The notes beneath the pieces are model-generated. The model made no database searches. It saw only the letters and a program-made list of their open reading frames with translations, and was not told the origin of the DNA. A stretch of 64,000 nucleotides of DNA from a virus. A program made the position numbers and the translations under genes. Location of the stretch: IMG/VR virus record IMGVR_UViG_3300023179_000029, positions 1-64,000 of that record, one strand, 5' to 3'. Shown one piece after another: positions 17,671-63,050 of this stretch (position 1 is its first letter; every line of letters starts with the position of its first letter).

Positions 17671-18020
17671 ATGGTGGTAATACCATTTTCAACTTCTCTA
17701 TGGCAATTGGCACATAATAGCACACATTTATTAGCCTCTTCAAGAAGTTTATCAAATGATTTACTTAATCCTTTTTGACCTAAACCAAAATTTTTGTCAT
17801 TAGGATCAATATGATGAAACTCAAGGGCCGCTGAACATTTGTCGTATTTACAAATTTGACATTTGCCCCCAAAATGAGAAACTAATTTCAATTTGTTTTT
17901 ACGACGCTGCTCGGCAACTCTATCTTGTCTACATTGTTTGCATCTGTAATAACCACGACCCTCCAGAACAAATTCTGTTAGGCCGTGGTGTTTACATTCT
18001 TTTGTAATATATTTTTTCAC
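17661..18020 (-). CDS. HNH endonuclease
   Basis: CKHHG..RCKQC finger; GGKCQICKY..ALEFHHIDP..KCVLLCANCHRE. Confidence 0.9.
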   Translation of the reverse strand: MKKYITKECKHHGLTEFVLEGRGYYRCKQCRQDRVAEQRRKNKLKLVSHFGGKCQICKYDKCSAALEFHHIDPNDKNFGLGQKGLSKSFDKLLEEANKCVLLCANCHREVENGITTIGP

Positions 18021-18065
18021 ATATATTATATGTCGGTATATTACAAAATGTTATACCGAAGAAGG

Positions 18066-18188
18066 TGAGTCGCCAATGCTTTTCCGCTTGCACATAGTAG
18101 ATCATCGCCTATTGATTAATTCTACTTTTTCATCAATAGGTTAGGCGGTTTCATTATTATTTATACCGATAATAATGGGCGACTCAAC
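18066..18188 (-). ncRNA. Candidate structured ncRNA with pseudoknot
   Basis: Three perfect 9-bp helices, a 4-bp helix and a 6-bp loop pseudoknot; TGtTATAAT promoter at 18193-18201. Confidence 0.6.
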
Positions 18189-18209
18189 ACTCATTATAAC
18201 AGATTTTTA

Positions 18210-18282
18210 TGGGCGGTGCAAGGCTCGAACTTGCGACCTACTCGGTGTAAACGAGTTGCTCTCCCAACTGAGCTAACCGCCC
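18210..18282 (-). tRNA. tRNA-Val(TAC)
   Basis: GGGCGGT/ACCGCCC acceptor, ACTCG-TTTACAC-CGAGT. Confidence 0.95.
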
Positions 18283-18299
18283 TTATTTGTTTACTACAA

Positions 18300-18373
18300 T
18301 CGGGATGGTAGGATTTGAACCTACGACCCTTCGCTCCCAAAGCGAATGCGCTACCAGACTGCGCCACATCCCG
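18300..18373 (-). tRNA. tRNA-Pro(TGG)
   Basis: CGGGATG/CATCCCG acceptor, TTCGC-TTTGGGA-GCGAA. Confidence 0.95.
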
Positions 18374-18377
18374 TGAT

Positions 18378-21761: not shown

Positions 21762-21815
21762 TAAAAATTTGTTAATATTGGTTTATCAACTATTATTATC
21801 AAGTAATTGTGCAAA

Positions 21816-21897
21816 TGGTGGGGGCAGGATTCGAACCTGCGAACTCTGAGAGAGAGGTTTTACAGACCCCGTGCGTTGACCGCTTGCATACCCCACC
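21816..21897 (-). tRNA. tRNA-Tyr(GTA)
   Basis: GGTGGGG/CCCCACC acceptor, GGGGT-CTGTAAA-ACCTC, long variable arm. Confidence 0.93.
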
Positions 21898-21944
21898 GTA
21901 ATACTTTATAAATTATCAATGTACTAGTAATAGTATATCATAAC

Positions 21945-21970
21945 AAAAGAGGCTCCACAAGGGAGCCTCT
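21945..21970 (-). terminator. Intrinsic terminator after nrdJ
   Basis: AGAGGCTCC..GGAGCCTCT followed by TTTGTT. Confidence 0.75.
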
Positions 21971-22002
21971 CCGTACTGCTAAACTATATGCTCAGACAAG
22001 TC

Positions 22003-47115: not shown

Positions 47116-49120
47116 TTCGACCTATCCTCAAATTTTTAATTAAAATTGGCCAAGGGTTGTCCGTTCCATCTAATTTTTTAGACAAAAATGAATCGTTTCT
47201 TCTAGTCAATTTAATTCTTAAATACCTAACAAAAGGAATTTGCCCATATTTATCTGTAAAATTATAAGTTAAATAATTCCATGGTAAACTTTTTTCACTA
47301 GGATTGAAATAAAGAGATGTTACAAATAAACTGTTAGCCTCTGGTATAACTGATTTAAAATCTCTTACAGAACCGGCACCAATTTGATCGTATGCAATTT
47401 CAATATCAATAGGTAATTTAAAAATTTGCATAGCAATAAAATTAATTGCTTTGGGAGATCCAAAATCAATTTCTAAATATTCAGACCCCGATGTTCTTTC
47501 TCCAGATGCCCAAAATTTGTAACTATTTGTATATGTATTATTATTTTGAATAATAGAATGTAAGTCGTCAGTTACAGGATACAAATCATTAATGTAGCTT
47601 GCATTGTATTCGTCTGATCTTGAAGTCACATCTAGTGGTTCTGCAAAATCGGCTAAACAATCCTTGGCTGTGTGTATTGTATTTGCATCCACTTTTTGTA
47701 AAAATGGAACATTGATAAACGCATCTGCAAACGCCTTGTTAAATGGACCAATATGTTGAGATGAATATCCGTCATTTGTAGCAATTGCAGAAAAATTAGA
47801 TAAATACGAACTATCATTTAAAGCGTTTTCTGTATAAGCAGCAACTTGAATCGGTGTATGAAAACTTCGATAATGTTGTTTTGACGCGCCTTGTACTTTT
47901 GGAGCCATTTGTTCAACATCTGATTTAATCCAATTTGTTTTACTTACAGATGGCCACGCGATTCTATTACTACCGGTTACATGGTCGATTACTTCATAGT
48001 ATGCGCTACTACTACTGACCTTGCTAACAATTTGATTTTGATAATTACTTTCACCAACAGTGTAACTGCCATAAGAATTTACTGGTTTGATTCGATCAAT
48101 TGCTTCATCAATTAAATGTCGATCATATTGATTAATACCAGCAATTTCATCTGAAGGATTATTAAATTGATAATTTTCAATGTCGACTTCAATTGAATTT
48201 TTTGTATCTAGAGCAGTAAATAATTTACTTATTACATTAAAACTTTGATCTGCTCTATCTGAGTAATTATTAAAAAACTTAATTTCAAATCCTGAAATCA
48301 AAGAACCTTTAACTGAAACATTTCCAGCGCCAATACTCGTAAATTTAATCATTGCATTATAAAAATCAAGTGATGTTATAGTTCCATTTTTTAAAAATAT
48401 TTCTTGAGATTCACCATTAAAATGAATAATAATAGAACCGGTACTAATCGGAGCAGAATTTTTAAAAGAAATTTTTTTATAAATAATTCGACTAATTTCT
48501 TGATTTGGAATCAATGTAAATTCATTCAAATCGTAATTTTTATATGATTTGTTTGTATGATAATTATCTAATCCAATCACATCGTCGCTATGTTGATCAA
48601 ACATATATTGATAATTTTCAATTAGATCTAATTCATAACCAACCGCAGATTTTGCAGCTAATTTGATTCCCTCTGTTGTTCCACCAAGTCTGGCTGCATG
48701 CAAAAAATCCAATACTCTATTTCTATAACTTTCGTCTTTTGCCCTTAAAGTATTCCATTGTTCCCTAGTTAAAACTCCAAAAGGGTCTTCAGAATAATTT
48801 TCATAAAATGGGGTACTTGTAATATTTTTACTAAATTTTAATGGATTAGTATAAAATTTTTCTAATTGATAATTTTGCAAATGAGTTGCTTCTAAAGCCA
48901 GTCTTGCTTCGTAAAAAGTTTTACGCAAAGATCCAACGCCGTTAATTCCCATTAAAGCTTCAAAGAATTTTGAAAGTACAGAATCCGGTGAAGTGTCATA
49001 AACTTCTTCAGGAAACCACCCTTGGTCAATCAACATTTTGACATTTGGAGAGCTTTTATTAGGCTCCACAAAAAATGTTTGATCTATAACCGCGCTATAT
49101 TTAGGATTATCATTTGCCAT
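47108..49120 (-). CDS. Baseplate wedge protein (P2 gpI-like N-terminus)
   Basis: DESYRNR..GGTTEGI..A..IKP, directly after baseplate J. Confidence 0.7.
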   Translation of the reverse strand: MANDNPKYSAVIDQTFFVEPNKSSPNVKMLIDQGWFPEEVYDTSPDSVLSKFFEALMGINGVGSLRKTFYEARLALEATHLQNYQLEKFYTNPLKFSKNITSTPFYENYSEDPFGVLTREQWNTLRAKDESYRNRVLDFLHAARLGGTTEGIKLAAKSAVGYELDLIENYQYMFDQHSDDVIGLDNYHTNKSYKNYDLNEFTLIPNQEISRIIYKKISFKNSAPISTGSIIIHFNGESQEIFLKNGTITSLDFYNAMIKFTSIGAGNVSVKGSLISGFEIKFFNNYSDRADQSFNVISKLFTALDTKNSIEVDIENYQFNNPSDEIAGINQYDRHLIDEAIDRIKPVNSYGSYTVGESNYQNQIVSKVSSSSAYYEVIDHVTGSNRIAWPSVSKTNWIKSDVEQMAPKVQGASKQHYRSFHTPIQVAAYTENALNDSSYLSNFSAIATNDGYSSQHIGPFNKAFADAFINVPFLQKVDANTIHTAKDCLADFAEPLDVTSRSDEYNASYINDLYPVTDDLHSIIQNNNTYTNSYKFWASGERTSGSEYLEIDFGSPKAINFIAMQIFKLPIDIEIAYDQIGAGSVRDFKSVIPEANSLFVTSLYFNPSEKSLPWNYLTYNFTDKYGQIPFVRYLRIKLTRRNDSFLSKKLDGTDNPWPILIKNLRIGRNV

Positions 49121-49134
49121 TGTTAAATCCTAAT

Positions 49135-52100
49135 TTAAACTTTGTTCCAAGTGTTTTGTGCTTTAACCCTAATGGTTATCATATTTGAAATATCGGTGCT
49201 ATCGGCCTGTGGTAAGGGCAACGAAGCCAATTGATTATCGCCAAGTAAGAAATCATTGTTAAAAACTGTACTTGATTCAATCATTAATTCAGGATTTGTA
49301 ATTGTCAACTCATTAATATCACTATTGTTGATGTAAGTAATTGTATATGGATTATCGACAGTCGGCATAGCAGATGGATCGGTTGCAGAAACTGTTGCAA
49401 AATAAGACAATTTTGCATTTAACGATGTTGCTGTAAGCCCAGCCAAAGTGACATCAATAATATTATTTAAATAATGAAATTTTAATTTACCAGAGGTATT
49501 TGAATTAGTTAAATAAAATAAATACGACGTTGGTTGAGTTCCGCCCAAATTGCCTTCGCCAATACTAACCTTTTGCAATGAATATTTTATAGTTTCTCCA
49601 TATTTATTAACTTCAGTCAATCTATTTCGAGGATTGCCATCATCGTCTGTAGAATTAGTTAAATCGTCTTTAGACCATTTAACATTGTCTACTCCACTAG
49701 TGTTGTGAATTACTTGTAAAATATCTGAAAGTTGAATGATAGAACCAAAGTATTGATTATCAAAATAAGATTTTAAACTGGTGACAATATTGTTGTTAAC
49801 AGTTGTTGGATTTTGCCCTTTATCATACATGACCGTAATATCTGGTTTAAAATATCTAATAACAGATTCGTGTACAAGTACATCCGTAGTTACCTGTTTT
49901 GCATTATCGATTGCAGCCTGAAGCGTAACAATATTTCCATTATATGTATAATTTTCAATTGAAAGGGTGTGCTCAGTAGCGTCAAATAATGTGTTAATAT
50001 TACTTTTTGCTAAATGCGCATCAGCAATTGTGGAATTGTCACCTCTAGTAGTCAAAAAGATGCGATTACCAATTTTTTCCCAATAGTAATTGTCTACATC
50101 AGGGGTTGTTGGAATTTGTTCTCCGCCAGAACCAGTGGTGTAACTGTATGAAGTTTTGCAGCGATATGCTCCATCGTTATAGCAAGCGAATGAACTGACC
50201 GTTGCTCCTAATGAATGAGCGGCGATTGTGGTTCCATTTACGCCTCTTGCTAATATTGTGAAAGTATTAGTGGAAAGCGATTTGTAAGAAATTAATTCTT
50301 CGTCAATTAACACAACAAAAGGTTTTGATTGATCGATAGGAACTGGAAATCCGGAACCTGATGTAACTGCAAATGTCGATCCATCACTTGCGGTCGCGGT
50401 TAAATTGGCAGACAAAGTGCTTGTTCCGTATTTTTGCAAAGTGTTAGTAGTCCCAAACCATATTCCCTGATCATTGGAGCTTGATGGTGAATCAATAAAT
50501 GCAAGCCACCCGCTATCTGATGGAGTTGGAGTAGCTGAAGCTTTTTTATAACCAATTTGTTCGCTATCAATAATCAGTTTTCCAAAATCTGGAAAAAGAA
50601 TTGATTCGTTGTATTTAATAATTGTGCCAATACCTGAAACAGAATCTGCACTTGCTCCAATTGACAAAGCTAGTGATGCGCTCGCCCCAGCACTATCTGT
50701 AATATATTGACCACTATACGGTCCCTCATCTGTATCTGTGCTAGACTTTGCTTTAATTTTAATTGCCCACTCAATGCCGTTCCTAGCCCGAATGGTCCCT
50801 CTTAAATCAGTGACATCTTCAACTTCCCAATAATGAACATTTTTAATAAATGTTCCATATTTGGTTGATATAGTATTTGGTAATTCGATAAGTGGCTGAT
50901 TTAAAATTGGCGTATAAACGTGCCCGGGAACTGGACAAGATTGCGTACTGTTTTTTCTTCTAAAATTTTTATAATAAAGGTAATTTGTCGCATCATCTTT
51001 AATAAATTTTTTAACAGGAACATAATTACCCGGCCGAGCCATTACAACATTTGCCAAAACCGCATCAAGGTTATCTACATAAATATCAACGCAATTGAGT
51101 ACTCCTCTTAAATAATCATTTCTTGAAGCAGAAGAAAGGTAAGAATATTCAAAAAATAAAACGTCTTTTGGACTAATTGTTTGAATATTATCTTCGTCAC
51201 CCGTGTAAACATTTGTAAATGTAATATTCGGTTGATAGATAACTGGAGTTGCTGTGCTTAAGGGATTGGAATTAATACCCTTTTGAAATTCTCGATAAGC
51301 GTCTCCTCTGTTTTTAGTAGAGGGGGTAACGTTCATTACAAAGTCGGCATCTTGTGTATATATTGTAATTAAAGAAGTTGTGTCATCAGATACATGGTAA
51401 GGCAAATTATCATAAACAAATTTTGCGTTTGTGTTTGTTGATAACGCGGTGGTATATTCTAAATCATTTCCATTTCCGCTAACATTGTCAGGCAAATCGG
51501 GCACCTGAATGTATTCTGTGTATTTTGACGACGGTCCAATAACTGTTGCTTTTTTCGACAATGTTGATAAAGCTAAAGCTAAATAATTATCCTTGGTCCC
51601 CGCTAGGTTTCTGAATGGCCCGGTAGCAGTAAATCTAGCTTTTAATTGATCATCAGATTCTTTATTAGTCCCTCCAACGATTGGAGCTTCGTTATTAATG
51701 CTGACAATGCTCCCGATGGCGGCTCCGTTCCAATCGGTGATTGTATTAGCGGGAACATTTCCTTTTTCTCCGGACTCAATGCATTCAATTGGCACAATGA
51801 CATCCTTGGTACCGGCAGCCATAATAACTGATCGGTTACTGATAAAAGTTACATCTGACCCATTGTTTACAGCTTTGGCTAAAAATTGTGTACCGGCAGG
51901 AATTCTCAATGGCGCATCGGCGTTTGTATTTCTAGATAATTTAAGAAATCCACTGGCCTTTGTGCCGACTTGTCGACCAAAACCAAAAAGGCCAAGCATA
52001 TTGTCAAGATCGGCGCCCACTTTTGCGTCAATATCAAGACCACCATTTAGAATATTTAAATCAATTTGATTTTCAGCAATGGCTTGCGCGACCGCTTCAA

Positions 52101-52200
52101 TAATTCTACGCTCAGGAGTTCCCTCAATGAGAGACATTGAGGGGACCTTAAATCTAAGGTCATTAATAATATTATCAATAATTTGCTGTTGCGTTGCCAT
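49135..52200 (-). CDS. Baseplate J-like protein
   Basis: GADLD..FG..R..A.G, IPAGT, G.KGNVPANTI, GGTNKESDDQLKAR; C-terminal SDI..I....GVDNV. Confidence 0.9.
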   Translation of the reverse strand: MATQQQIIDNIINDLRFKVPSMSLIEGTPERRIIEAVAQAIAENQIDLNILNGGLDIDAKVGADLDNMLGLFGFGRQVGTKASGFLKLSRNTNADAPLRIPAGTQFLAKAVNNGSDVTFISNRSVIMAAGTKDVIVPIECIESGEKGNVPANTITDWNGAAIGSIVSINNEAPIVGGTNKESDDQLKARFTATGPFRNLAGTKDNYLALALSTLSKKATVIGPSSKYTEYIQVPDLPDNVSGNGNDLEYTTALSTNTNAKFVYDNLPYHVSDDTTSLITIYTQDADFVMNVTPSTKNRGDAYREFQKGINSNPLSTATPVIYQPNITFTNVYTGDEDNIQTISPKDVLFFEYSYLSSASRNDYLRGVLNCVDIYVDNLDAVLANVVMARPGNYVPVKKFIKDDATNYLYYKNFRRKNSTQSCPVPGHVYTPILNQPLIELPNTISTKYGTFIKNVHYWEVEDVTDLRGTIRARNGIEWAIKIKAKSSTDTDEGPYSGQYITDSAGASASLALSIGASADSVSGIGTIIKYNESILFPDFGKLIIDSEQIGYKKASATPTPSDSGWLAFIDSPSSSNDQGIWFGTTNTLQKYGTSTLSANLTATASDGSTFAVTSGSGFPVPIDQSKPFVVLIDEELISYKSLSTNTFTILARGVNGTTIAAHSLGATVSSFACYNDGAYRCKTSYSYTTGSGGEQIPTTPDVDNYYWEKIGNRIFLTTRGDNSTIADAHLAKSNINTLFDATEHTLSIENYTYNGNIVTLQAAIDNAKQVTTDVLVHESVIRYFKPDITVMYDKGQNPTTVNNNIVTSLKSYFDNQYFGSIIQLSDILQVIHNTSGVDNVKWSKDDLTNSTDDDGNPRNRLTEVNKYGETIKYSLQKVSIGEGNLGGTQPTSYLFYLTNSNTSGKLKFHYLNNIIDVTLAGLTATSLNAKLSYFATVSATDPSAMPTVDNPYTITYINNSDINELTITNPELMIESSTVFNNDFLLGDNQLASLPLPQADSTDISNMITIRVKAQNTWNKV

Positions 52201-52664
52201 TATAAACCTAATATAATTTCAATTGTTTCAATAGACCCAGAAGCGCTTTTTAAATGCACTTTTACATCTAATTTATCTAAATTTTGTTTAATATCAATAG
52301 CTTCAATTCCGGCCAAAACCTCTCCCTTGGTCAAAGATTGGGAGTTATATTTCATTTTGTCAGCTTTCGCTCTAGCCAATTGTCTGGATTGATAATTTCC
52401 TACAATTCTTAAAATTTCAGACCTTACTCTTAAATCTACCATTGATAAGTCGGTATCGCCAATAATACTTTCGTAAATGACTCCATCAGAGTTTACGCCT
52501 CCATCAATTAACGAACCGTATGAAGGGTTGTTTAAATCAGATCCCATAGGTTGTTTTAACTCAAGAGTTAAATCTTGAATCATTTTGTTTTCGTTATCGA
52601 CGGTTTCTAAACCTTTTGGACCAATTGCTAAATCTCCATTTTGTAATTTTAAACTCCAAGTCAT
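52200..52664 (-). CDS. Baseplate wedge/sheath initiator (gp25-like)
   Basis: LKLQNGDL..QDL..G....P.YGS.I. Confidence 0.8.
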   Translation of the reverse strand: MTWSLKLQNGDLAIGPKGLETVDNENKMIQDLTLELKQPMGSDLNNPSYGSLIDGGVNSDGVIYESIIGDTDLSMVDLRVRSEILRIVGNYQSRQLARAKADKMKYNSQSLTKGEVLAGIEAIDIKQNLDKLDVKVHLKSASGSIETIEIILGL

Positions 52665-52703: not shown

Positions 52704-54491
52704 TTATGGAATTAAAACTGTTAAAGTAATTTTTAAAGTACCGTAGCCAACAAAATTGTCACTTGTCGGATTCCAAATCCAGTAAAACAAATTTCCGCTT
52801 ACGTTTTTGCCTGCTCCGCAAAGAAGTGGAAAAGTTCCGGCTAATCTAAAATATTGAGCGCCATAATTAGCACTATTTGAAATAGGATCATATTCGTCAG
52901 GAGGATTGAAACCTCCGGAGTTATCATAATGTCCGCCTGCTAAACCTCTGGGAAAAGTTACAAAACCCGAAGTTGTCGTTCCAATGCTTAAAGGAATTGT
53001 TAATTCATAATATCGACAAATATCACTTGCACCGCTTGGATCAAAATCAACTTTTCGCCATATAGCATTAGATTGTACTCCTTCAACATTATTATTAGGA
53101 TTGGCATCATTTTTATAAGCGGTGCCAACATTTGAACTGTTGCTAGTAACATAAGATTGAGTTGCTAGTGGATTACTAGTTCCCGATCCAATGTAAAAAG
53201 CTCCACCTCTAATGTTTCCACTTCCCGCATCGATGCCGCCATTAGCGGTAACGACGTTTCCTCCGCTGGTATTTAATCCGCCAGTTGTTATCCCTTGAGT
53301 AGATGTAAAATCATTAGTTGTAATTGTTCCTTGAAAATTTGCATTACCGTTACTGGCATATAAATGAATCTTGTTAGTTTCCCCATTTTTAAGATAAACA
53401 TCTCCTTGAAAAGAGGCTGATCCATCATTTCCTTCAAGGTGAATCGTGTTACTGGCTCCATTTTTAAGATAAACATCTCCTTGAAAAGAGGCTGATCCAT
53501 CATTTCCTTCAAGGTGAATCGTGTTACTGGCTCCAACGTACATGTCATTTGTCGCTTTAACATAGTTACTAGCCGTAATGTTTCCACTCGCGCTAATATT
53601 GGTTGTGTCAATGTTACTAATATTGAGATCATTTGCAGAAATGTCACCGTAAATTGTAACACTGTCGTCAATTACTAATTGATCATTAATTTGAATTTTT
53701 GGTGTTTTATAAAATGTTATCGATGCCGTATTTGAAGCACCAATAAAAATTTCGCCTGCAACCGTAGAACTTGTATTTTCACTTGTTGAACTATTAAGAC
53801 GAATAGACGCTAAAGATTTAAATTCTATTGTTCCTTGTTTTGAAAATTGAATTAAACCATTGTTATCAAATACGATTGAAGATTTTTTAGCAAGTGCTTC
53901 TGGCGTTAAATCAGTCGGGTTTGCAGCAGCAAGGTTGATTTTGCCGGTTCCACCGTCTAAAATGATATATCTTGAATTTTGTGTTTCAATTAATTCCAAA
54001 CGTCCAGTGCCAAGGGTACCAGTTTGAGAAGTTGTAGAAATTTGAGCGCCACTTTCCAAAATCACTTTTTCAGTCACGCTAAGGCTATTAATTTTTAAAT
54101 CAATGCTTGGTTGCCAAGTTTCATCTATATAAGACAAAAGGGCATTATTGGCAGCATTTGTATCGTCAGTAATCACAACCGATTTGCCAGTAGGCGTTTT
54201 AACTACATCTGCTGCAATTTTACCGTGCCCGGGAGCAAGATCGTTAATTTTAACATCATCGGTGCTATCAGCGCGACGATCTAATACCCAAATACCGTTT
54301 GCTTGTTGAATGATCCAACTTTCGCCTACTTTTGGCCAAACAAAAAATTCGCGAGTATCAAAAACCGCAATTTGAACCACTGTTTGATCTTTTAAAGCTG
54401 CTTCTATTTTTCTAGTTTTTGGATGAACTGTAGTAATAGTGCATGCTCTTCGGGATCCATATCCCGGCTTCATATGATCTTGTACAGCCAT
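52704..54491 (-). CDS. Baseplate spike/puncturing protein (OB-fold N-terminus, beta-helix repeats)
   Basis: WPKVGESW N-domain, Gly/Asn beta-helix repeats; between hub and gp25-like genes. Confidence 0.65.
   Translation of the reverse strand: MAVQDHMKPGYGSRRACTITTVHPKTRKIEAALKDQTVVQIAVFDTREFFVWPKVGESWIIQQANGIWVLDRRADSTDDVKINDLAPGHGKIAADVVKTPTGKSVVITDDTNAANNALLSYIDETWQPSIDLKINSLSVTEKVILESGAQISTTSQTGTLGTGRLELIETQNSRYIILDGGTGKINLAAANPTDLTPEALAKKSSIVFDNNGLIQFSKQGTIEFKSLASIRLNSSTSENTSSTVAGEIFIGASNTASITFYKTPKIQINDQLVIDDSVTIYGDISANDLNISNIDTTNISASGNITASNYVKATNDMYVGASNTIHLEGNDGSASFQGDVYLKNGASNTIHLEGNDGSASFQGDVYLKNGETNKIHLYASNGNANFQGTITTNDFTSTQGITTGGLNTSGGNVVTANGGIDAGSGNIRGGAFYIGSGTSNPLATQSYVTSNSSNVGTAYKNDANPNNNVEGVQSNAIWRKVDFDPSGASDICRYYELTIPLSIGTTTSGFVTFPRGLAGGHYDNSGGFNPPDEYDPISNSANYGAQYFRLAGTFPLLCGAGKNVSGNLFYWIWNPTSDNFVGYGTLKITLTVLIP
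53383..53535. repeat. Perfect in-frame 75-bp tandem duplication
   Basis: GASNTIHLEGNDGSASFQGDVYLKN x2, identical at DNA level, followed by a diverged third copy. Confidence 0.95.
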
Positions 54492-54501
54492 AACCTATCC
54501 T

Positions 54502-55998
54502 TTAATATGCGCCTTTAGGAGCGCCAATTTCATCTGAACTTGGATTATCCCAAGCTCTAATCATTCCTGCGTGAACCCAAGATTTATTTGGATTATTTGG
54601 ATTACCCGAGGCGTCTTTTGTAGCAGCGGGCGCACTCAATTCGGCCGTAGTTGTAAACCCAGATTCATAAGATCCATTATGCACAACCCGTTCAATATAA
54701 CATTGCAATCCATGCTCTTCAAATTCAACAATCCCGCCGGGATAAAGTTCTGGCATAAAAGTAAATTCAAATGTTGTTTTAAATTGTTTGGCCCACATAT
54801 AACAAAACCTTTGATAAGCCAAAAAGGTTTCATAAATTGGCGACCTAATTGCCGCCACCTCTTCAGTCAACGGTCTAGCTCCATATTTTTGAAGAAATTT
54901 GATCGCATCTTCTTTTTTCTGCAAACTGGGCTTAGTAGAATCCATACCAGATTCGCTTGAAGAAGTTGATGGGCCGTTAACAAAATCTGCCATAAATGCA
55001 TTAAATACATTAATCACTCCGGCCGTATTAATCCTATCAATATAATCAATAGTTCCGTATCCAATTCCGCTTTCACTTCCCATTGTGTCACCAACTACAT
55101 ACATATGAGTAACTAATTCATCATCAGATAAATCGATTTTTCCATCCATGATTTCGATATCTTTAATGACCCAATATGCGGTTTTACCAAGTCCACCAAA
55201 ATAATCTGGGTAAAATGCGTAAAAATCGCCGTTAGGAAGAGACATAAATTCTCTTAAAGACCCGGCCGCAATTTGTTCTACGAATGGAAGAAGCGGTTTA
55301 TCATTAAGAAGACTCCTCTGCCCAGTGAGCAGAATTGCCTCTTTCATTTCCATAATGCTTGGCAATGTAAAATAGGAAGAAAATGCTGCGGCAGTAGCTA
55401 TTTCTCCGGGCGTTTTGCCACTGCCAGCTCCACCCGAACTCGGATCTGGGACTTGTGTTCCATCGACCTTTTCACCATAAATAGACGTATACAACGATGC
55501 CTCTCCGGCAAGTTCGTTATCAATTCCGCCGTTTGCACTAGATCCAAGGGCAACTCTAACATAGGCGACATCAGAACCGACTTCTCCAATAATATTGCCA
55601 GCGGTTACTCCAGCAAGATCAAAATTACGAGGTGGATCAATTTTTACCGGATTGTTGTTTTTATCAAAAGCAGTATAAATAACTTGATCGATCTCTACCT
55701 TTGCTTTTGAATTATGATCCGATGTATATACCAAAGGATTTGTTAAAGTTAAAGAAATACTCTTTGTTGAAGACGATCCATTATATTCTTGATACTCATA
55801 GCCCGTTCCAACAACCCCGTCGTACATTGCAAGTAAATGGTGGGAGCCATTATTTGTTGTATATGTTGACGCCCCGGCTCTGCCCAAACCAAATGATGGT
55901 TTTACACCAGATCCTTTTGGAAATGGATAAATTGTTCTAGCATCCTTACTATTTGGCGCTTTTGTTCTTAATCTTCCTTTTAAATTAGAAATTGCCAT
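54502..55998 (-). CDS. Baseplate hub C-terminal half with degenerate M23-like N-domain
   Basis: GQRSLLNDKPL..REFMSLPNGDFYAFYPDYFG..KYGARP..FMPELYPG..YIERVVH..GFTT. Confidence 0.7.
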   Translation of the reverse strand: MAISNLKGRLRTKAPNSKDARTIYPFPKGSGVKPSFGLGRAGASTYTTNNGSHHLLAMYDGVVGTGYEYQEYNGSSSTKSISLTLTNPLVYTSDHNSKAKVEIDQVIYTAFDKNNNPVKIDPPRNFDLAGVTAGNIIGEVGSDVAYVRVALGSSANGGIDNELAGEASLYTSIYGEKVDGTQVPDPSSGGAGSGKTPGEIATAAAFSSYFTLPSIMEMKEAILLTGQRSLLNDKPLLPFVEQIAAGSLREFMSLPNGDFYAFYPDYFGGLGKTAYWVIKDIEIMDGKIDLSDDELVTHMYVVGDTMGSESGIGYGTIDYIDRINTAGVINVFNAFMADFVNGPSTSSSESGMDSTKPSLQKKEDAIKFLQKYGARPLTEEVAAIRSPIYETFLAYQRFCYMWAKQFKTTFEFTFMPELYPGGIVEFEEHGLQCYIERVVHNGSYESGFTTTAELSAPAATKDASGNPNNPNKSWVHAGMIRAWDNPSSDEIGAPKGAY

Positions 55999-56023
55999 TT
56001 AACTAACCTTTCGATCTTTATAA

Positions 56024-57205
56024 TTAATTGGTGGGTTCTTTACCATTGTATCGTTTATACAAACCATAAATGGCTTTTGCTGCTTCTTCCGCATCAGTAA
56101 CAAAGTCACCAGATGTTCCAACATATCTACTTTTTACGGGACCGAGATTGGTATTTCCGGGGTATTTATAAGTTAAACCAAAATTTGGGGTCTTTGCATA
56201 ATTTCCTTTGTATTTACCAAATTCACTTTCATGACCATATACTCCCCATAAAACGGTAAAAGGAATTTTCCATTTTTTGGCCTTTTCTGCAATGACCTTT
56301 CGATCATTTGGATTACCGCCATTCGCGCCGTTGCTCAATGCTTTTCTATAAACCTGTTCAGCATCATATTTTCCATCAGAATAATGGTTAACTGTCGATA
56401 TCCAATCAGAGCCTATATTTTTAACAGCGTTATCGCCCGAACCTTCACCAGAATTATTTGAACTTTGATCGTTATTGGCATAAGTTGAATTACCATATTT
56501 GGAAGCACCAATAATATTATTTAAATATTGATGAAATTCTTTAATAGAAGACGCGCTTTCTTTTGCCGCATCAGCGTATAATTTCCTAACAATTTCTGAA
56601 ATTTGTTCGCCCGGCAGTTCTTGAATATAAATATTATCACCGTTCCAACCTCCAATTTCAGTTAAAATTGAATAAAGTAAATTACCAATACTAGTGTCGT
56701 TTAAACCAGTCGTTTTGCGGGCTTCTTTTTCAGGGCTTAATGCCGTACCGTCAAGTGTCACTCCCCAACCATGTGCATCCATAAATGCTCTTACAAAAGG
56801 CAAAGCGGGGTCCCAGTATGTGTATTGCAATCTTTTAAGCGTACAAGAAGCATCTATGGCAACTATGCCCGGCAATAATTGCACATGCGGCGTTGTATCG
56901 CAATACCCCGTAAATACCTGAATGGGACGACCTTTTAATCTGGTCATTGTAATTGTAATCGGATCCATGGGATGAAACATTGGGCGAATGGATCCATCGC
57001 TTCCAATATGTTCTGTAAACATTGATCTTATTTGACCACTTGTTTCATCTGAAATTCTAGGATTTCTAAATTCGATTCTTGCATAGCTAGTTGCATTAAT
57101 CCTACGATCAACTTGTACATCCGTGATGTAAGGACTTAAATCAAAGACGCCCGAATCGGATTTAATCCAAACATTAACTGATGGTGAATAAACTAATCTC
57201 TTCAT
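56024..57205 (-). CDS. Hub N-half paralog C plus lysozyme-like domain
   Basis: Shared ~235-aa N-terminus; C-terminal AKKWKIP..LWGVYGHESEFG. Confidence 0.7.
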   Translation of the reverse strand: MKRLVYSPSVNVWIKSDSGVFDLSPYITDVQVDRRINATSYARIEFRNPRISDETSGQIRSMFTEHIGSDGSIRPMFHPMDPITITMTRLKGRPIQVFTGYCDTTPHVQLLPGIVAIDASCTLKRLQYTYWDPALPFVRAFMDAHGWGVTLDGTALSPEKEARKTTGLNDTSIGNLLYSILTEIGGWNGDNIYIQELPGEQISEIVRKLYADAAKESASSIKEFHQYLNNIIGASKYGNSTYANNDQSSNNSGEGSGDNAVKNIGSDWISTVNHYSDGKYDAEQVYRKALSNGANGGNPNDRKVIAEKAKKWKIPFTVLWGVYGHESEFGKYKGNYAKTPNFGLTYKYPGNTNLGPVKSRYVGTSGDFVTDAEEAAKAIYGLYKRYNGKEPTN

Positions 57206-57211
57206 TTTATT

Positions 57212-58369
57212 TTAAACCGGTGATGCTATGCCAAGTTCTTTGCAAATTTTGCGAACGTAAGCAATAGTTTCATTAATTGTTTTCCATGAACCATTATCTG
57301 CTCTTACAGGGCCAGCGTTATAGGCCGCTAAAGACAGCGGAATGTCCCCATTATATTTTTTCAAATATGTTTTGAATTCTATTACTCCAGCGTCAATGTT
57401 TTTAGCATTGTCTGTACGAATTTCATTTGCACTATATCCACTTTGCTCTTCTACAAATTGAGGCATTAGCTGCATCAGCCCAACTGCCCCCGCGCCCGAT
57501 CCCGCATTTGGATTGAAATCAGATTCTGCTCTAATGATTGCGCGGATAATATTTGGATCAACCCCATGTTTTCTACAAGCTTGGGATATTAATCGCTCTA
57601 CCCAATCCGGACCTCGGCTACCAGATTTAGTTTTTTCAGTAGACACGGGGCTGCCGGTATCTGGCTCGCTTCCACCGGCCGAACCATATGCAGAGGCTCC
57701 AATTATTTGATGCAAAAATTCATGAAATTCTTTAATAGATGATGCATTCTCTTTTGCTGTGTCACTATATAATTTTTTAACGATTTCTGAAATCTGTTCA
57801 CTTGGTAATTCTTGAATATAAATATTTTTATCGTTCCAACCGCCAATTTCTTTTAAAATTTGATGTAATAAATAACCGATGCTGCCATCGTGTAATGAAC
57901 CATTGAAGCGATTATCTGTATTAAATGCAGTCCCTTCCGCAGTGACCGACCATCCCGTTTTATTCATAAAATCTCTGACAAAGGGCAAAGCGGGGTCCCA
58001 GTATGTATACTGAAGCCTTTTTAAAGTACAGGAGGCAGTAAGTTCAGCGTTACCCGGTAATAGTTGAACGTATGGCGTTGTGTCGCAATATCCGGTAAAT
58101 ACCTGAATGGGCCTGCCCTTAAGACGAGTTAAGGTGATAATGATCGGGTCCATTGGGTGAAACATTGGACCAATAGAGCCATTGATTTCATGTTCTGTAA
58201 AAAGCATTTTATTGTCGACTTTAGGATTTCTAAATTGAATGCGGGCATAACTGGTCGCATTAATTCTACGATCAATGTTAAATCCTATAATATAGGGACT
58301 TAAATCAAAAACACCTGAATCCGATTTAATCCAAACATTTATAGAAGGAGAATAAACGAGTCTTTTCAT
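57212..58369 (-). CDS. Hub N-half paralog B plus soluble lytic transglycosylase (SLT)
   Basis: Shared N-terminus; AIIRAESDF, GAVGLMQLMP, LAAYNAG, ETIAYV. Confidence 0.85.
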   Translation of the reverse strand: MKRLVYSPSINVWIKSDSGVFDLSPYIIGFNIDRRINATSYARIQFRNPKVDNKMLFTEHEINGSIGPMFHPMDPIIITLTRLKGRPIQVFTGYCDTTPYVQLLPGNAELTASCTLKRLQYTYWDPALPFVRDFMNKTGWSVTAEGTAFNTDNRFNGSLHDGSIGYLLHQILKEIGGWNDKNIYIQELPSEQISEIVKKLYSDTAKENASSIKEFHEFLHQIIGASAYGSAGGSEPDTGSPVSTEKTKSGSRGPDWVERLISQACRKHGVDPNIIRAIIRAESDFNPNAGSGAGAVGLMQLMPQFVEEQSGYSANEIRTDNAKNIDAGVIEFKTYLKKYNGDIPLSLAAYNAGPVRADNGSWKTINETIAYVRKICKELGIASPV

Positions 58370-58370
58370 T

Positions 58371-59606
58371 TTATAATCCTTCTATATGTCTAGGAGTAAA
58401 TCCGTTAGTTGGATAACTATCCATCCAACCAACTGTGTGAGTATGTCCGCCATGACCATCGGGATTTTTATTTTGAATCGAACTTGCTGTTCCAATAAAT
58501 TTAGACCCTCCATTTTTATCAGTTATTTCGGTAAAAACATGCCCGGCATTAGCCCAAACTGTCATGTACCTACCTTTTCCGGGAACACCCCAATTATTTT
58601 CAAACCAACCAGAAGTTTCGGCATAAGACAACCCGTATTTACCAATAAATTTCATCATATAAGAAGTAAAACTTGAACAATCAAAATAATAGGCGCCATT
58701 TAAAGCTTTTGGCGGATTTGTTAAATGATCCGGTGTTATTCTTGCGGCAACTTGCGAATAAACGGTCGTATGATTATGAATTCTATTCGCCTCATTAATC
58801 CATTGTTGCACTAATGCTGGGGCATCTTGCGGCGCTACCGGGCTATTACCCGGATTGCTACTAGACGACGAATTATCCGCTTGTCCAGATAACGAACCGT
58901 AAGCTGACGCTCCGATCAAGTTATGCAAAAATTCATGAAATTCTTTAACTGATTTTGCATTTTCTTTTGAAGTATCTTCGTATAATTTAGCCACAATGTT
59001 TTTTATGCTATCTGGCAACCCCTCAATATAAATGTTTTTATCATTCCAACCGCCAATCTCTTTTAAAATGTTTAAAAGTAAAGATCCCATGCTGCTATCT
59101 TTACTAGTATTTGCCTTTTCTTCAACACTAAAATTGATGGCCGTACCATCATCTTTGACACCCCATCCATTAGCGATCATAAAATCTCTGACAAAGGGCA
59201 AAGCGGGGTCCCAATATGTGTGCTGTAATCTTTTTAAAGTACAGGAGGCCTGTATTTGAGCCATTCCCGGCAATAATTGGATATATGGCGTTGTGTCACA
59301 GTAACCGGTAAATACCTGAATGGGCCTACCTTTTAAACGAGTTAAGGTGATGATGATTGGATCCATGGGATGAAACATTGGGCGAATGGATCCATCTGGG
59401 TAGATATGCTCGGTAAATAAAAATCTGGTCTGATTAGCATTCCTTTCATCAGCAACTTTTGGGTTTCTAAAATCAATAGAAGCATAGCTAGTTGCGTTGA
59501 TTCTACGATCAACTGCAAATGAAGTGACATAGGGGCTTAAATCAAAAACGCCCGTGTCAGATTTTACCCAAACATTAACCGATGGGGAATAAACTAATCT
59601 TTTCAT
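58371..59606 (-). CDS. Hub N-half paralog A plus NlpC/P60-like peptidase
   Basis: Shared N-terminus; FDCSSFTSY (catalytic Cys), WANAGHVF (His). Confidence 0.8.
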   Translation of the reverse strand: MKRLVYSPSVNVWVKSDTGVFDLSPYVTSFAVDRRINATSYASIDFRNPKVADERNANQTRFLFTEHIYPDGSIRPMFHPMDPIIITLTRLKGRPIQVFTGYCDTTPYIQLLPGMAQIQASCTLKRLQHTYWDPALPFVRDFMIANGWGVKDDGTAINFSVEEKANTSKDSSMGSLLLNILKEIGGWNDKNIYIEGLPDSIKNIVAKLYEDTSKENAKSVKEFHEFLHNLIGASAYGSLSGQADNSSSSSNPGNSPVAPQDAPALVQQWINEANRIHNHTTVYSQVAARITPDHLTNPPKALNGAYYFDCSSFTSYMMKFIGKYGLSYAETSGWFENNWGVPGKGRYMTVWANAGHVFTEITDKNGGSKFIGTASSIQNKNPDGHGGHTHTVGWMDSYPTNGFTPRHIEGL

Positions 59607-60628
59607 TTATTATGACCACCATACCCACCCCTAGATCTATTGCTAGCATAGTGATTAGAATACTGAGGGCCTGTAGTATGTTTTCCAGACCCTACGGTGC
59701 CTTTTTTAATTGAATCTGCCCAGCGTTTACGATCTCTTATAATATTTGGATTGGCTTCACCAAAACTTCCAACCGGTACGGGCGATGCTCCAACCGTAGT
59801 TGACTGTGGATTTTTAACAGGTTGACCAGAAGCAATTGGTTGATTTGGATTTTTTTGTTGAGGACCAATAATCCTAAAAATTTCCATCCATGATGAAATT
59901 TGGCTACCATCATCTTCGACATCTTCATAAATACCAATTTTATCCGCTTTCATAGTAGAATACGCGGGAATAAATTCAAATTGAAAATCAGGAGCAAAAT
60001 TAAATTTTGTTGCCCCAGCTGCAATATTTGTGATATATCCTTCGACTTTTAAAGGTAGGTGTCCTCCCTTGGTATGCCTTGGAGCCGATTTAACAACTTT
60101 TGGTCCCGAGTCTTTAACCAATAGCGTGATCGTTTGAGCGCTAACACTTGCGCCTTTTCGTGCTTTATCTGGATTGCCGTCTTTATTATCATAAAGATCT
60201 TGGTTTCCGGTAACCGCAGCAAAATGACATTCTCTAATAAAAGATGCAAGCCTGTTATATTCTTTTTGATTTGGCATTGTGCCAGAAACTGTCATTTTTG
60301 GTTGATTAAATGCTCTTGGAAAAAATTGTCTACGATAACGACTTTGACCAGTCACCCCGGTCAAAGAAAAATCAATATTAATTTCATTTACCCAAAGTTT
60401 CATGTATGCCCCAAATGGAGCCAAAAGAGCAACATTCCAATTTTGCCCTTTACTATCAGGACTAACATTGGGAATATTAACTGCATAACCCTTATCGGAT
60501 CTATTTTCAAGAATTTTTAATTCTTTAGATTCATATTGATTTGATTGCCTGTATGCATTGTTTTTATATAGACCATCATTAATGCGTCTTTTTGGCGATC
60601 TAGGATGTGTTTTCTTTTCTTTTGCCAT
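59603..60628 (-). CDS. Tail/baseplate structural protein
   Basis: 341 aa between TMP and hub genes. Confidence 0.65.
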   Translation of the reverse strand: MAKEKKTHPRSPKRRINDGLYKNNAYRQSNQYESKELKILENRSDKGYAVNIPNVSPDSKGQNWNVALLAPFGAYMKLWVNEINIDFSLTGVTGQSRYRRQFFPRAFNQPKMTVSGTMPNQKEYNRLASFIRECHFAAVTGNQDLYDNKDGNPDKARKGASVSAQTITLLVKDSGPKVVKSAPRHTKGGHLPLKVEGYITNIAAGATKFNFAPDFQFEFIPAYSTMKADKIGIYEDVEDDGSQISSWMEIFRIIGPQQKNPNQPIASGQPVKNPQSTTVGASPVPVGSFGEANPNIIRDRKRWADSIKKGTVGSGKHTTGPQYSNHYASNRSRGGYGGHNK

Positions 60629-61323
60629 TATGAACTCTTATTTTGTCCCCATTTAGGTATCGAAACGTCGGCTCCTAAAGATGAAAAATCTGCGTTGTCA
60701 AGCCAAGATGGAAGAATCTTGCCATAAAATTGTACGGTTTCATTATCCCATCTTTTGGGATCGTTTTGTTTATATTGTTTATTTGTCGGAGCGCTCCAAG
60801 GATTGTTTTCATGAAATCCTATTTCCGCAGTGGCTGTACCAAAGGGGCTAAATTCTCCTTCGGTGGAAACTCCTGCAAAATCTTGAGAAGATAAAACGGA
60901 ATCTTCAAATCTATCATCAAATTCAGAAACCGCCGCTTGTAATTCCCATGTAGGTGCAGTCACCTCTGTCCCATATTTAAAACCGGGCAAATTTTTAGGC
61001 CAAATAGAGAATTTCCAATCTCTATGTGGGTAATACATTTCCACGGGTCTGCTATCATATTTAGGATCACCAGCGCGACCCTGCGTTGCATTTTGCATGT
61101 AAGAAATAAACCATTTGTAAATAACTTCAATGTCTCTATATGTTCTAACCTCTCCACTAATATTTAAATCGTCAACATACATAGATAAAATTTGTACAAC
61201 TTCGCCGCCATATGTCGGATAATTAGCGGTATTTAATCCATATGACCAAACAATTTCATTCGGTTTAACACGAACAACTAAATCATCTGTCATAGAAGGG
61301 TGTTTAAAAATTAATTCATTCAT
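60628..61323 (-). CDS. Tail-tube initiator-like protein
   Basis: P.EI.WSY.LNT..YPTYGGEVVQILS; directly after TMP. Confidence 0.65.
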   Translation of the reverse strand: MNELIFKHPSMTDDLVVRVKPNEIVWSYGLNTANYPTYGGEVVQILSMYVDDLNISGEVRTYRDIEVIYKWFISYMQNATQGRAGDPKYDSRPVEMYYPHRDWKFSIWPKNLPGFKYGTEVTAPTWELQAAVSEFDDRFEDSVLSSQDFAGVSTEGEFSPFGTATAEIGFHENNPWSAPTNKQYKQNDPKRWDNETVQFYGKILPSWLDNADFSSLGADVSIPKWGQNKSS

Positions 61324-63050
61324 CAGCTTGAACCGCCCGTGGTTTTGCCTGTTCTTCTATAAGGCGGTGCGTGGCCACGCGAAGCGGTGCGAGCGCCTCC
61401 AGAACCTACAGTAACTTTAGTTTCTCCGCTGGGGTCCCCATCAATTTCGAGATATCTTCTAGAAGCATCTGATAATCTAATCGTCACAACATTATTCCCC
61501 TGTGGTACATTTTCTTCTTGCTCTTGATTTCCCAATATTTCTTCATATTTATGTTTTTGAGCGTAAGCTCTTTTAACCATTTGGCTGGCTGTTAAATTAG
61601 GTCCATGCGGGCCAGCAGCTAAAACTTCGTTAATTTGCTTAGTATCAAGACCAGAGGCTTGCATGGCTTTAACTAAACCGGAATTTGACCCCCCTTGACT
61701 GGTAATTAATGCTTTAAGCGCATTAGGATTGGTTTTAGCAAGTTGCGAAGCATTTTGAGAATAAGCTTGAAATCCGGATTCTACAGCAGCTCTTTTTTTA
61801 GAAATTTCTTCAGTCCGTCTCATTTTTTGTAAATCGGCAGTGTCGATGCCAAGCATATATGCAACATCGGCATCGCGCTTATCTTGACCAAATTGAGTTA
61901 CCTTAAGTCCAGTGACGGGATCTCTGCTTACTGTGTCCTTTGGTGCCGGACCCATTTGGTTATAAAGCATGTCAATAGTTTGATACATCGCGTTATTTCT
62001 TTGTGCATATGTCGCTAGGCCTAATTGCCATGGATTTAAATTTCCGCCTCTCATCAAATTTGCTTGCACTAATCCATTATTTTGTAAACGATTAATTGCT
62101 AAGGCGGGTACACCAGTGGTCAAAGTCATGGCGGTCATTGTTTTGACTCCATTTAAAAACGTTCCGCCCGTTTGTCTTGATAAATCTCCAAATTGATTAA
62201 CATCGTTCATCATTTGATTGACATTGACATGAGCAGCCCTAGCCGCAGGAACTAAATCTTTCATTGCGTCAGTAAAATCTCTAACGCTGTTGGACCCGTA
62301 TCTAACGCTTTTATCAAGCATTTCATGCACCAATGGGTCGCTCGCAAATCCCGCTCCGATGCTTTTATTTAATTCGACCAATCCTGAAAAAACAGAATTA
62401 AATCCAGAGGTTCCTTGATTGTATCCAAGACCTAGAGTTGCTTTACCAAGTTCTTCCGCCTGTCCAGTAGTAATTCCGCCCCGCCACCCAGTTTTTAAAG
62501 CGCTTAATTTAAATTTAAGACCTTCTACGAGCGCAGGATTAAAAGGCGAACGAAAACCAATATCGGTTCCGGGAATAGTAACGTCGCCACTGGCGCCACT
62601 AATCCCTTGCATCTCTCCAATACTATTTAATTCGGTGGCGATAGCTCCATATTTGGCTCCCGCTTTTGAAACTGTGTCTACAACAGCCTTTGCACGGGGT
62701 ACGTAATCTGATCCCGCTTTAGAGAAAAATTGGGCGCCTTTTTCAGCAGATCTTTCTATAGCTTTTGGCGGCCGACTAATACCATCTTCTTGTTCTTGTT
62801 TGCTTCTTTTCTTTTCTAATGAAGAACTTAATTTACTAAGTCCGGCAGAAGCCAGTTTGAACATATCATTACTTTTGCCTGCGGGTGTAATGCTAGAATT
62901 AGGGGGTGTTGATTGACTGCCTTCCTCGCCTTCTGCTGCGCCAACGCCACCGCTTTTAACGCTAATGTCAATATCGGATAAAACTCCCTTGATTTCCCCT
63001 AGGAGCTTAACGACTTCAGCGTTACCGATGGCTTCTATATTGTCTGGCAT
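61323..63050 (-). CDS. Tape measure protein (short)
   Basis: 575 aa Ala/Gly-rich helical protein downstream of the frameshifted tail chaperone. Confidence 0.7.
   Translation of the reverse strand: MPDNIEAIGNAEVVKLLGEIKGVLSDIDISVKSGGVGAAEGEEGSQSTPPNSSITPAGKSNDMFKLASAGLSKLSSSLEKKRSKQEQEDGISRPPKAIERSAEKGAQFFSKAGSDYVPRAKAVVDTVSKAGAKYGAIATELNSIGEMQGISGASGDVTIPGTDIGFRSPFNPALVEGLKFKLSALKTGWRGGITTGQAEELGKATLGLGYNQGTSGFNSVFSGLVELNKSIGAGFASDPLVHEMLDKSVRYGSNSVRDFTDAMKDLVPAARAAHVNVNQMMNDVNQFGDLSRQTGGTFLNGVKTMTAMTLTTGVPALAINRLQNNGLVQANLMRGGNLNPWQLGLATYAQRNNAMYQTIDMLYNQMGPAPKDTVSRDPVTGLKVTQFGQDKRDADVAYMLGIDTADLQKMRRTEEISKKRAAVESGFQAYSQNASQLAKTNPNALKALITSQGGSNSGLVKAMQASGLDTKQINEVLAAGPHGPNLTASQMVKRAYAQKHKYEEILGNQEQEENVPQGNNVVTIRLSDASRRYLEIDGDPSGETKVTVGSGGARTASRGHAPPYRRTGKTTGGSS

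Follow-up and report, generated by a model that had tools for sequence, protein, structure and literature searches.

Four consecutive minus-strand genes at positions 54502 to 59606 of the window, by which we mean the whole 64,000-nucleotide stretch analysed here (the first 64 kb of the 127-kb IMG/VR virus record IMGVR_UViG_3300023179_000029, estimated completeness 79%), appear to encode a phage baseplate hub of the gp27/Mu gp44/P2 gpD type that is rebuilt in trans, with a triplicated, enzyme-armed N-terminal piece (N-half) sharing a single C-terminal piece (C-half). We put the probability of this reading at about 0.72. Hubs of contractile-tail baseplates are regarded as homotrimers built from a single chain. 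What was computed here is the split itself, the homology to fused hubs, the complementary folds of the two pieces, their predicted binding, the purifying selection acting on every copy and the reappearance of the layout in other phages. The four genes are:

58371..59606, minus strand: paralog A, 411 amino acids (aa); N-half aa 1-237 (58896-59606), PHROG 2810 E 4e-35
57212..58369, minus strand: paralog B, 385 aa; N-half aa 1-229 (57683-58369), PHROG 2810 E 2.4e-35
56024..57205, minus strand: paralog C, 393 aa; N-half aa 1-238 (56492-57205), PHROG 2810 E 4.5e-35
54502..55998, minus strand: C-half gene, 498 aa; hub part aa ~201-480 (54505-55398), PHROG 2810 E 9.8e-56

The family PHROG 2810 (952 positions, 'virion structural protein') aligns with the N-halves over positions 47-262 and with the C-half over 683-921, that is, the two pieces fall on separate parts of one profile. 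Fused actinophage hub-lysins (PHROG 2810, cluster C) are homologous to the window proteins over both halves and carry hydrolases between the two hub parts; examples are Mangeria gp136 (948 aa, 'virion structural protein'), Myrna gp132 ('lysin A') and Rhodococcus phage E3 gp119 ('baseplate protein'). The gene order is shared as well: tape measure, two small genes, hub, spike, gp25-like gene and Baseplate_J, with one 948-aa gene replacing the four in Mycobacterium phage Mangeria. Whereas the fused hub-lysin is a single chain present in a single copy per genome, the hub of the window is cut between the enzymes, its front piece is present three times, and its four parts are separate open reading frames (ORFs) with their own starts and stops, unlike the single polypeptide of PHROG 2810. 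The preliminary description of this locus, made from the sequence alone, had proposed a split hub and had stated that related actinophage hubs are single chains with an enzyme inserted mid-protein; both points hold, the former through the profile positions, the complementary folds and the predicted binding described below, the latter through Mangeria gp136 and the predominance of fused modules (66 of 80) in our survey. Comparison with the single-chain hubs places the split point between two inserted enzymes.

Neither hub part has a Pfam or NCBIfam match, even at E values up to 10 or 1, and a sequence search of the PDB with the whole C-half gave nothing meaningful; membership in the hub class thus holds at the fold level only, and we therefore used predicted structures. 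The AlphaFold2 (AF2) model of paralog C has a mean predicted local distance difference test score (pLDDT) of 75.6, with residues 1-120 mostly above 90; in that of the C-half protein (mean 61.5), residues 212-480 are at 80-94, and residues 1-200 are low and unreliable. Foldseek searches with both models retrieved hubs of contractile tails, contractile injection systems and siphophage tips, including 3d37, the Milano hub, Mu gp44, MuSo2, the pyocin R2 hub, T4 gp27 and VgrG, with best E values of 8e-6 for the C-half and 9.4e-5 for the N-half. Structure comparison (Z-scores from VIA; paralog C model residues 6-129, up to ~197, for the N-half, and model residues 200-458 for the C-half) placed the two pieces on complementary ranges of the solved hubs. 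On the pyocin R2 hub, the N-half covers residues 1-103 (Z 9.1, root-mean-square deviation 3.2, 101 aligned) and the C-half 110-325 (Z 8.4); on T4 gp27, the ranges are 4-141 (Z 7.6) and 124-365 (Z 7.5), and on Mu gp44, 3-133 (Z 6.4) and 105-365 (Z 9.3). The N-half also aligns with residues 2-103 of MuSo2 (Z 8.3), and the C-half with residues 142-366 of the Milano hub (Z 9.5). As predicted, then, the N-half would correspond to the first tube-like barrel (domain I) with a helical addition, and the C-half to domains II-IV including the second tube-like barrel. That the halves complement each other into a gp27/Mu gp44-like fold had been put forward in the preliminary description as a point on which its proposal could fail, and the complementary ranges bear it out on this point.

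Prediction of a 1:1 complex between paralog C aa 1-237 and the C-half aa 196-498 gave a score of 0.75, compared with 0.02 for the best of three controls; as a rough calibration, 116 of 157 solved complexes and 2 of 215 mismatched pairs attain the 0.75 mark. The runs share at least 69% of contacts, the partners have pLDDT values of at least 64, and the predicted pairing of strands joins N-half residues 27-40 with C-half residues 436-445 and 191-195 with 259-261. These models support binding of the N-half to the C-half. At the predicted interface, 58 of 73 positions are invariant among the three paralogs, versus 90 of 164 elsewhere (Fisher p 2.8e-4), which is consistent with all three N-halves binding the one C-half.

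The three paralogs share an N-terminal block of ~237 aa, from MKRLVYSPS to IGAS.YG, with many invariant columns in the alignment, followed by Ser/Gly/Asn-rich linkers and then by C-terminal domains without mutual alignment, just as the preliminary description had it for these tandem genes. Amino acid identity among the N-halves is 70-75%, nucleotide identity between the paralogs is ~70-72%, and exactly three copies are present in the whole phage record. The linker of paralog C is disordered in the AF2 model (pLDDT below 50 at residues 233-256). The longest identical nucleotide runs measure 37-38 nucleotides (nt) in the A-B and A-C comparisons (naive shuffle p ~0.0005) and 23 nt between B and C (p 0.06); long identical tracts indicative of gene conversion among the paralogs were not found, and the result on shared runs is ambiguous.

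The C-terminal domain of paralog B is an SLT lytic transglycosylase, the sole firmly identified appended domain: it matches SLT (PF01464) at aa 260-358 (57296-57592) with E 4.5e-24 and 84.7 bits against a cut-off of 21.3, is also matched by NCBIfam lytic transglycosylase models, and its translation contains the ES (A-E-S, with the catalytic Glu), GLMQ and AYNAG motifs. For the corresponding domain of paralog A (aa ~263-411) there was no Pfam match and no PDB sequence match, the PDB searches with the C-terminal domains of both A and C yielding nothing meaningful. It is homologous to the N-terminal domain of a C-half in a related locus, L014 (phmmer 1.5e-6), which in turn matches NLPC_P60 (PF00877) weakly, with E 5e-4 and under the gathering score; Atlas leads are NLPC_P60/Amidase_5 clusters with scores of 0.92 and 0.90, and a D-C-S-S-F motif with a later G-H, read from the sequence, offers a candidate Cys/His pair. 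The paralog A domain is thus probably an NlpC/P60-type cysteine peptidase. In paralog C, the appended domain (aa ~257-393) is all-helical and contains an H-E-S-E-F-G motif; it matches Pfam SLT_2 weakly (E 0.023, 14.3 bits against a cut-off of 24.3) as well as TIGR02283 MltB_2 (E 0.048), and hhalign relates it to the SLT domains of relatives around the ES motif (P 0.0012, probability 19%), so that it is possibly lytic-transglycosylase- or lysozyme-like. Hence, of the labels proposed in the preliminary description, SLT in paralog B stands, and NlpC/P60-like in A and lysozyme-like with an ES motif in C are weakly supported.

The same description had called the N-terminal domain of the C-half protein (aa 1-200; 55399-55998) M23-like, a label that does not stand in this form. 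The domain sits where relatives carry Peptidase_M23, and it has no Pfam match at E up to 10 and no usable match in the Atlas; a word-indexed search of 5.8 billion clustered proteins retrieved only the domain itself and one relative. It is not supported as PF01551 by profile or by the HxxxD/HxH ligands: it reads Y-V-R-V at the HxH site, the metal-binding histidines of M23 being missing, and hhalign against the M23 domains of relatives gave no match over the domain itself. True M23 domains occupy the same position in L007, L008, L014 (twice), L086 and L099 (twice). A group of relatives without Pfam match at this position (L009, L010, L011 and L013) is linked to M23 by hhalign with a probability of 82% and has lost the HxH histidines, and the window domain aligns weakly with this group (P 0.016). 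Given the true M23 domains and this intermediate group, the N-terminal domain of the C-half is likely a degenerate M23 remnant. Compared with its orthologue, it is 60% identical with omega 0.34, versus 95% and omega 0.026 for the hub part.

A tblastn search of 50,697 GenBank phage records found either half in 224 of them, at one place each (209 Mycobacterium, 9 Gordonia, 4 Rhodococcus, 1 Mycolicibacterium and 1 Eggerthella). With the N-half as query, phmmer retrieved 670 matches at E up to 0.001 from 1.84 billion representatives; the best 150 are bimodal in length, with 83 short proteins (mostly 358-620 aa) and 67 long ones (830-1280 aa). In the short homologues the N-half occupies residues 1-240 and is followed by another domain; for 75 of the 83 (all but 8 proteins below 350 aa), a Pfam run identified SLT, SLT_2, SLT_3, Amidase_2, M23, M15_3, VanY, CHAP, Phage_lysozyme2, DPBB_1, 3D, Beta-lactamase2 and GDSL behind the N-half. 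The C-halves of relatives carry an M23 or NlpC/P60-like domain N-terminally. To follow the layout, we collected 68 loci from IMG/VR and 66 from JGI/ENA metagenomes (overlapping sets) and scored their ORFs with N-half and C-half hidden Markov models. Merging of identical modules left 80 distinct complete ones, and 27 more were cut by contig ends. The complete modules have the following layouts:

fused: 66 of 80
three N-halves and one C-half (NNNC): 9 of 80, in six lineages (the window, L006, L007, L008, L009, L010, L011, L074 and L079)
one N-half and one C-half (NC): 2 of 80 (L013 and L086)
two N-halves and three C-halves (NNCCC): 1 of 80 (L014)
two N-halves and two C-halves (NNCC): 1 of 80 (L099)
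one N-half, one C-half and a fused copy (NCF): 1 of 80 (L017)

All nine complete loci of the NNNC clade have three N-half copies, and at no locus surveyed does either piece exceed three. In the fused relatives, the insert between the hub parts measures ~350-450 residues and typically has a glycosidase first (SLT_3, SLT, Phage_lysozyme2 or Glucosaminidase), then a peptidase (M23, NlpC/P60, CHAP or M15_4; M15 also occurs), as in L033 (SLT_3 and M23), L039 (SLT_3 and M15_4), L041 (SLT_3 and CHAP) and L057, which is Rhodococcus phage E3 (fused, SLT_3 and NlpC/P60). Among the split loci, L014 (9143-13649, on the same contig as L083) has M23 on two of its three C-halves and, on the third, the NlpC/P60-like domain homologous to the appended domain of window paralog A, and both C-halves of L099 (3925-9154) carry M23. 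The smallest fused relative seen, L128 (6923-8695; 590 aa), has ~115 residues without a Pfam domain between its hub parts and may stand near an ancestral hub that carried no enzyme.

Purifying selection acts on each of the three window paralogs, as judged from codon comparison with the orthologues in a second phage (L005/L006, one contig): the N-halves are 82-84% identical with omega ~0.04-0.08, synonymous sites being near saturation, and the C-terminal domains of A and C have omega values of 0.11-0.14. Relaxed constraint on the copies, which the preliminary description had named as an outcome that would speak against it, was thus not observed. The gene order in L006 is B', A', C', compared with A, B, C in the window, and B' (7251-7991; compare 57212-58369 in the window) is an intact gene of 246 aa that has lost the SLT domain; it shares 83% identity with B, at omega ~0.05. 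The main split loci group into a single clade in the maximum-likelihood tree of N-halves (24 rows, support 94/96), and L013 and L014 branch off at its base. The split N-half of L017 groups with the fused copy of the same locus (100/99), which points to a separate fission event. Within the NNNC loci, the paralogs cluster by phage lineage and not by position (window and L006; L074; L007; L008; L010; L009 and L011), with three clean orthologue pairs in window and L006 and three in L009 and L011, and the N-halves of the lineages have diverged to ~50% identity. The appended domains cross these lineages: the A-type domain is common to the window, L006, L009, L010 and L011 (phmmer 2e-58 to 8e-20), and the B-type SLT domain to the window, L074 and L009 (phmmer ~1e-33). 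Such discordance between tree and cassettes would reflect either an old triplication with homogenisation of the N-halves or exchange of enzyme cassettes behind a constant adaptor.

We propose that the ancestral hub was a single chain consisting of the N-half, a glycosidase, a peptidase and the C-half, and that fission took place between the two inserted enzymes, so that the N-half would have kept the first of them and the C-half the second; fission inside a two-enzyme insert is suggested by the enzymes on the N-halves of relatives together with the M23 or NlpC/P60-like domains on their C-halves. The N-half would bring the first barrel and the C-half the remaining hub domains, the two re-associating non-covalently, and three N-halves with three C-halves would give the cap normally found at the tail-tube tip above the spike, trimeric and pseudo-hexameric. 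The N-half gene would then have been triplicated, each copy serving to dock its own, different wall hydrolase, tethered by a flexible linker (the probable NlpC/P60-type peptidase, the SLT lytic transglycosylase and, probably, another transglycosylase-like domain), and all three copies would pair with the single C-half. The phage population, and probably single virions too, would in this way carry several bond specificities at the tail tip, for local digestion of peptidoglycan upon sheath contraction.

Split hubs are not confined to metagenomic contigs. The cultured Eggerthella phage LE2-3 (MW679026.1; locus L140, 5344-7900) also has a split hub, consisting of one N-half and one C-half: LE23_104 (378 aa) combines the N-half (E 3.7e-22) with Phage_lysozyme2 (E 1.6e-29), and LE23_105 (472 aa) is the C-half (E 3.7e-66). 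The two are annotated as 'tail protein' only and are followed by genes in the spike position, the gp25-like position and Baseplate J. LE2-3, the sole GenBank match from outside the Mycobacteriales, differs from the window in its one N-half, and its identity to the window is 28.7% over the C-half. Fission is therefore already present in a deposited genome, where it has gone unremarked, and triplication is absent there. T4 gp27-gp5, Mu gp44 and P2 gpD have the same fold as the two window pieces combined. The hubs formed by T4 gp27, Mu gp44 and P2 gpD are homotrimers of one chain, unlike the assembly proposed here, and the window proteins have no sequence match to the Pfam hub families. In T4, the wall-degrading lysozyme at the tail tip belongs to the spike protein gp5 and not to the hub. 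Inserts between hub parts are an established theme, as alignments with two other hubs, which have large inserts and known baseplate structures, show: the N-half aligns with residues 1-200 and the C-half with residues 160-624 of the hub of S. aureus phage phi812 (9euf_E, 722 aa), and with residues 1-513 and 523-714, respectively, of that of cyanophage A-1(L) (8kea_A, 878 aa). Both of these are single chains without a paralog set.

The closest functional likeness is to the VgrG proteins of type VI secretion systems, paralogs of which, with different appended domains, can form heterotrimers such that one firing delivers several domains, according to PMC12195295; the appended domain of VgrG-3 targets peptidoglycan, as stated in PMC3854691. 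The two systems share paralogous hub/spike subunits with different appended domains, co-assembly being a conjecture for the window hub. They differ in that VgrG proteins are whole gp27 and gp5 fusions encoded at scattered loci, whereas in the window the first hub domain alone is duplicated in tandem and shares the second piece. No description of a split, triplicated or multiplied phage hub was found in the full-text literature searched. One candidate, the heterotrimer of PMC13252515, is an accessory fibre complex and not a hub.

Several observations weigh against the reading of these genes as a trans-assembled, multi-enzyme hub. The Z-scores of 6-9.5 are in the 'middling' range, and the structural case rests on many independent hubs giving complementary ranges. 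The complex score may partly reflect how well hub folds are represented among solved structures; the prediction used unpaired alignments of our own, to which the calibration counts apply roughly, and the higher conservation at the predicted interface may be an effect of core versus surface. A significant family match was obtained for one of the four appended domains (SLT only), and the N-terminal domain of the C-half, lacking the M23 ligands and evolving fast, may be non-catalytic. The trimeric stoichiometry is transferred by analogy from solved hubs, and enzymatic activity and the co-assembly of different paralogs in one hub are, for now, what we infer. Finally, relatives with two N-halves and three C-halves, with two of each, or with an N-half, a C-half and a fused copy imply that three different N-halves are not obligatory in the family; the copy-number survey suggested in the preliminary description accordingly yields a constant three in all nine NNNC loci and no family-wide rule.

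If the trans-assembled hub is accepted, its composition could be arranged in two ways, to which we assign roughly equal odds. The N-halves might be mixed at random, any of them entering any of the three sites, so that virions would differ in their enzyme combinations (interchangeable warheads, a form of bet-hedging); the conserved predicted interface of A, B and C with a single C-half, the tightly packed and apparently co-translated gene string, the differing numbers of N and C copies between lineages (1, 2 or 3) and the presence of one enzyme cassette on the N-half of one phage and the C-half of a different one all fit this arrangement, which we regard as a serious if tentative possibility. 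It leaves unexplained the constant copy number of three in the nine complete clade loci and the retention of the unarmed L006 N-half, and precisely these features favour a fixed heterotrimer in which A, B and C each occur once, on three identical C-halves, with broken threefold symmetry and the full enzyme set in each virion. Exactly three N-halves persist in nine of nine distinct complete NNNC loci despite the turnover of enzyme domains and gene order; an N-half that is intact and constrained yet SLT-less in L006 suggests a structural slot and not a mere enzyme carrier; each paralog has signatures kept between orthologues; and neither piece exceeds three copies per locus. In gp27-type rings, the two tube-like barrels alternate. 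Such alternation would place identical C-halves between the N-halves, and no N-N contact that could order them is known; loci with two N-halves and three C-halves, with two of each, or with N, C and fused copies are unable to fill three slots one-to-one, and the nine loci are non-independent if triplication happened once. We therefore hold the fixed heterotrimer tentatively as well, as a possibility well short of even odds.

It is improbable that just one N-half serves as the structural hub subunit, the others being accessory tail lysins docked elsewhere (in the tube interior or on the tape measure) or free lysis enzymes. The N-half barrel is a general tail-tube fold, the same searches also matching tube and distal-tail proteins, and the paralogs are 25-30% diverged from one another; yet all three copies conserve the predicted interface with the C-half and match the hub profile about equally well (E ~1e-35 each), and an endolysin-like gene (VanY, PG_binding_1, GH25) is encoded separately at 15318-16706. 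We reject the readings of the array as an assembly artefact or as functionless, decaying duplicates, which seem very improbable even for a metagenome-assembled virus with an estimated completeness of 79%: the copies share only ~70% DNA identity and differ in their 3' domains, contigs assembled independently show the same layout, and all frames are intact, with omega values of 0.04-0.14 relative to the orthologues.

Under the preferred reading of a hub rebuilt in trans, this clade shows that a hub is separable at a domain boundary and that one barrel domain is usable as a portable docking module for hydrolases, multiplied and re-armed, with 13 Pfam enzyme families found in relatives. If several paralogs co-assemble, the tail tip would bear a combinatorial or fixed enzyme kit, which would be relevant to the crossing of thick or unusual walls, to the exchange of tail-lysin cassettes and to the engineering of virion-associated lysins behind a constant adaptor; the system is also a natural test of whether symmetric assembly tolerates or enforces heteromeric composition. 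Should the hub be an obligate asymmetric heterotrimer produced by fission and triplication, which we consider possible and somewhat doubtful, it would act as a fixed multi-enzyme drill attacking glycan strands and peptide stems at once in each virion; the three structural slots would hold the paralog number at three, and the hub would be to phages what heterotrimeric VgrG is to type VI secretion systems, and a rare instance of broken symmetry at the centre of the baseplate. The simple split into one N-half and one C-half in the cultured phage LE2-3 makes trans-complementation testable at the bench.

The hub genes lie in a contractile-tail baseplate module on the minus strand that spans 63050 down to 45307 in the ORF listing, between the tape-measure position and the spike, gp25-like and gp6/J-like genes, which is the gene position of a hub. 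The neighbouring genes are:

59603..63050, minus strand: three upstream tail genes of 575, 231 and 341 aa, recognised by synteny with Mangeria genes 132-135 and all related loci
first of the trio in 59603..63050, minus strand: 575-aa gene, putative tape measure, by position only
within 59603..63050, minus strand: 231-aa protein, PHROG 2786 E 3.8e-11
52704..54491, minus strand: probable central spike, 595 aa, by position only; next gene downstream of the C-half gene
52200..52664, minus strand: gp25-like baseplate protein, 154 aa, PHROG 2669 'baseplate protein' E 5.9e-16
49135..52200, minus strand: Baseplate J/gp6-like wedge protein, 1021 aa, Pfam Baseplate_J E 4.2e-21, PHROG 6 E 5.3e-44
39672-49120: larger distal tail genes beyond the Baseplate_J gene (ORF listing)

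The 341-aa gene ends in a stop codon that overlaps the start codon of paralog A (ATGA), and the gaps that follow are 1 nt between A and B, 6 nt between B and C, and 25 nt between C and the C-half gene. A scan for promoters and terminators found promoter consensus sites at or below chance and nothing between the hub genes. The 595-aa protein in the spike position has no significant family match in Pfam or PHROG; in all related loci, the gene flanked by the hub module and the gp25-like gene has a conserved N-terminus. Inside its gene, a 75-nt tandem repeat at 53365-53535 (2.3 copies, 94% match) encodes the repeated 25-residue segment ASNTIHLEGNDGSASFQGDVYLKNG, which may be a length-variable part of the spike.

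The sequencing run that contains this DNA carries the label lake water metagenome. Of the listed DNA runs, one may represent the source sample and another has a small share of the sequence; no RNA run is listed. Elsewhere in the window, replication genes encode a DnaB-like helicase, a primase, Pol III alpha, RecA and a class II RNR. The endolysin-like gene at 15318-16706 (minus strand), apart from the tail-tip enzymes, combines a weak VanY-like match (E 2.9e-4) with PG_binding_1 and Glyco_hydro_25. The G+C content is 29-34% at 40001-50000, which holds the large distal tail genes, and at 18001-22000, which includes a 1127-aa ORF (18378-21761), as opposed to 40-46% in the rest of the window; these low-G+C stretches may represent mosaic or fast-evolving host-recognition genes.

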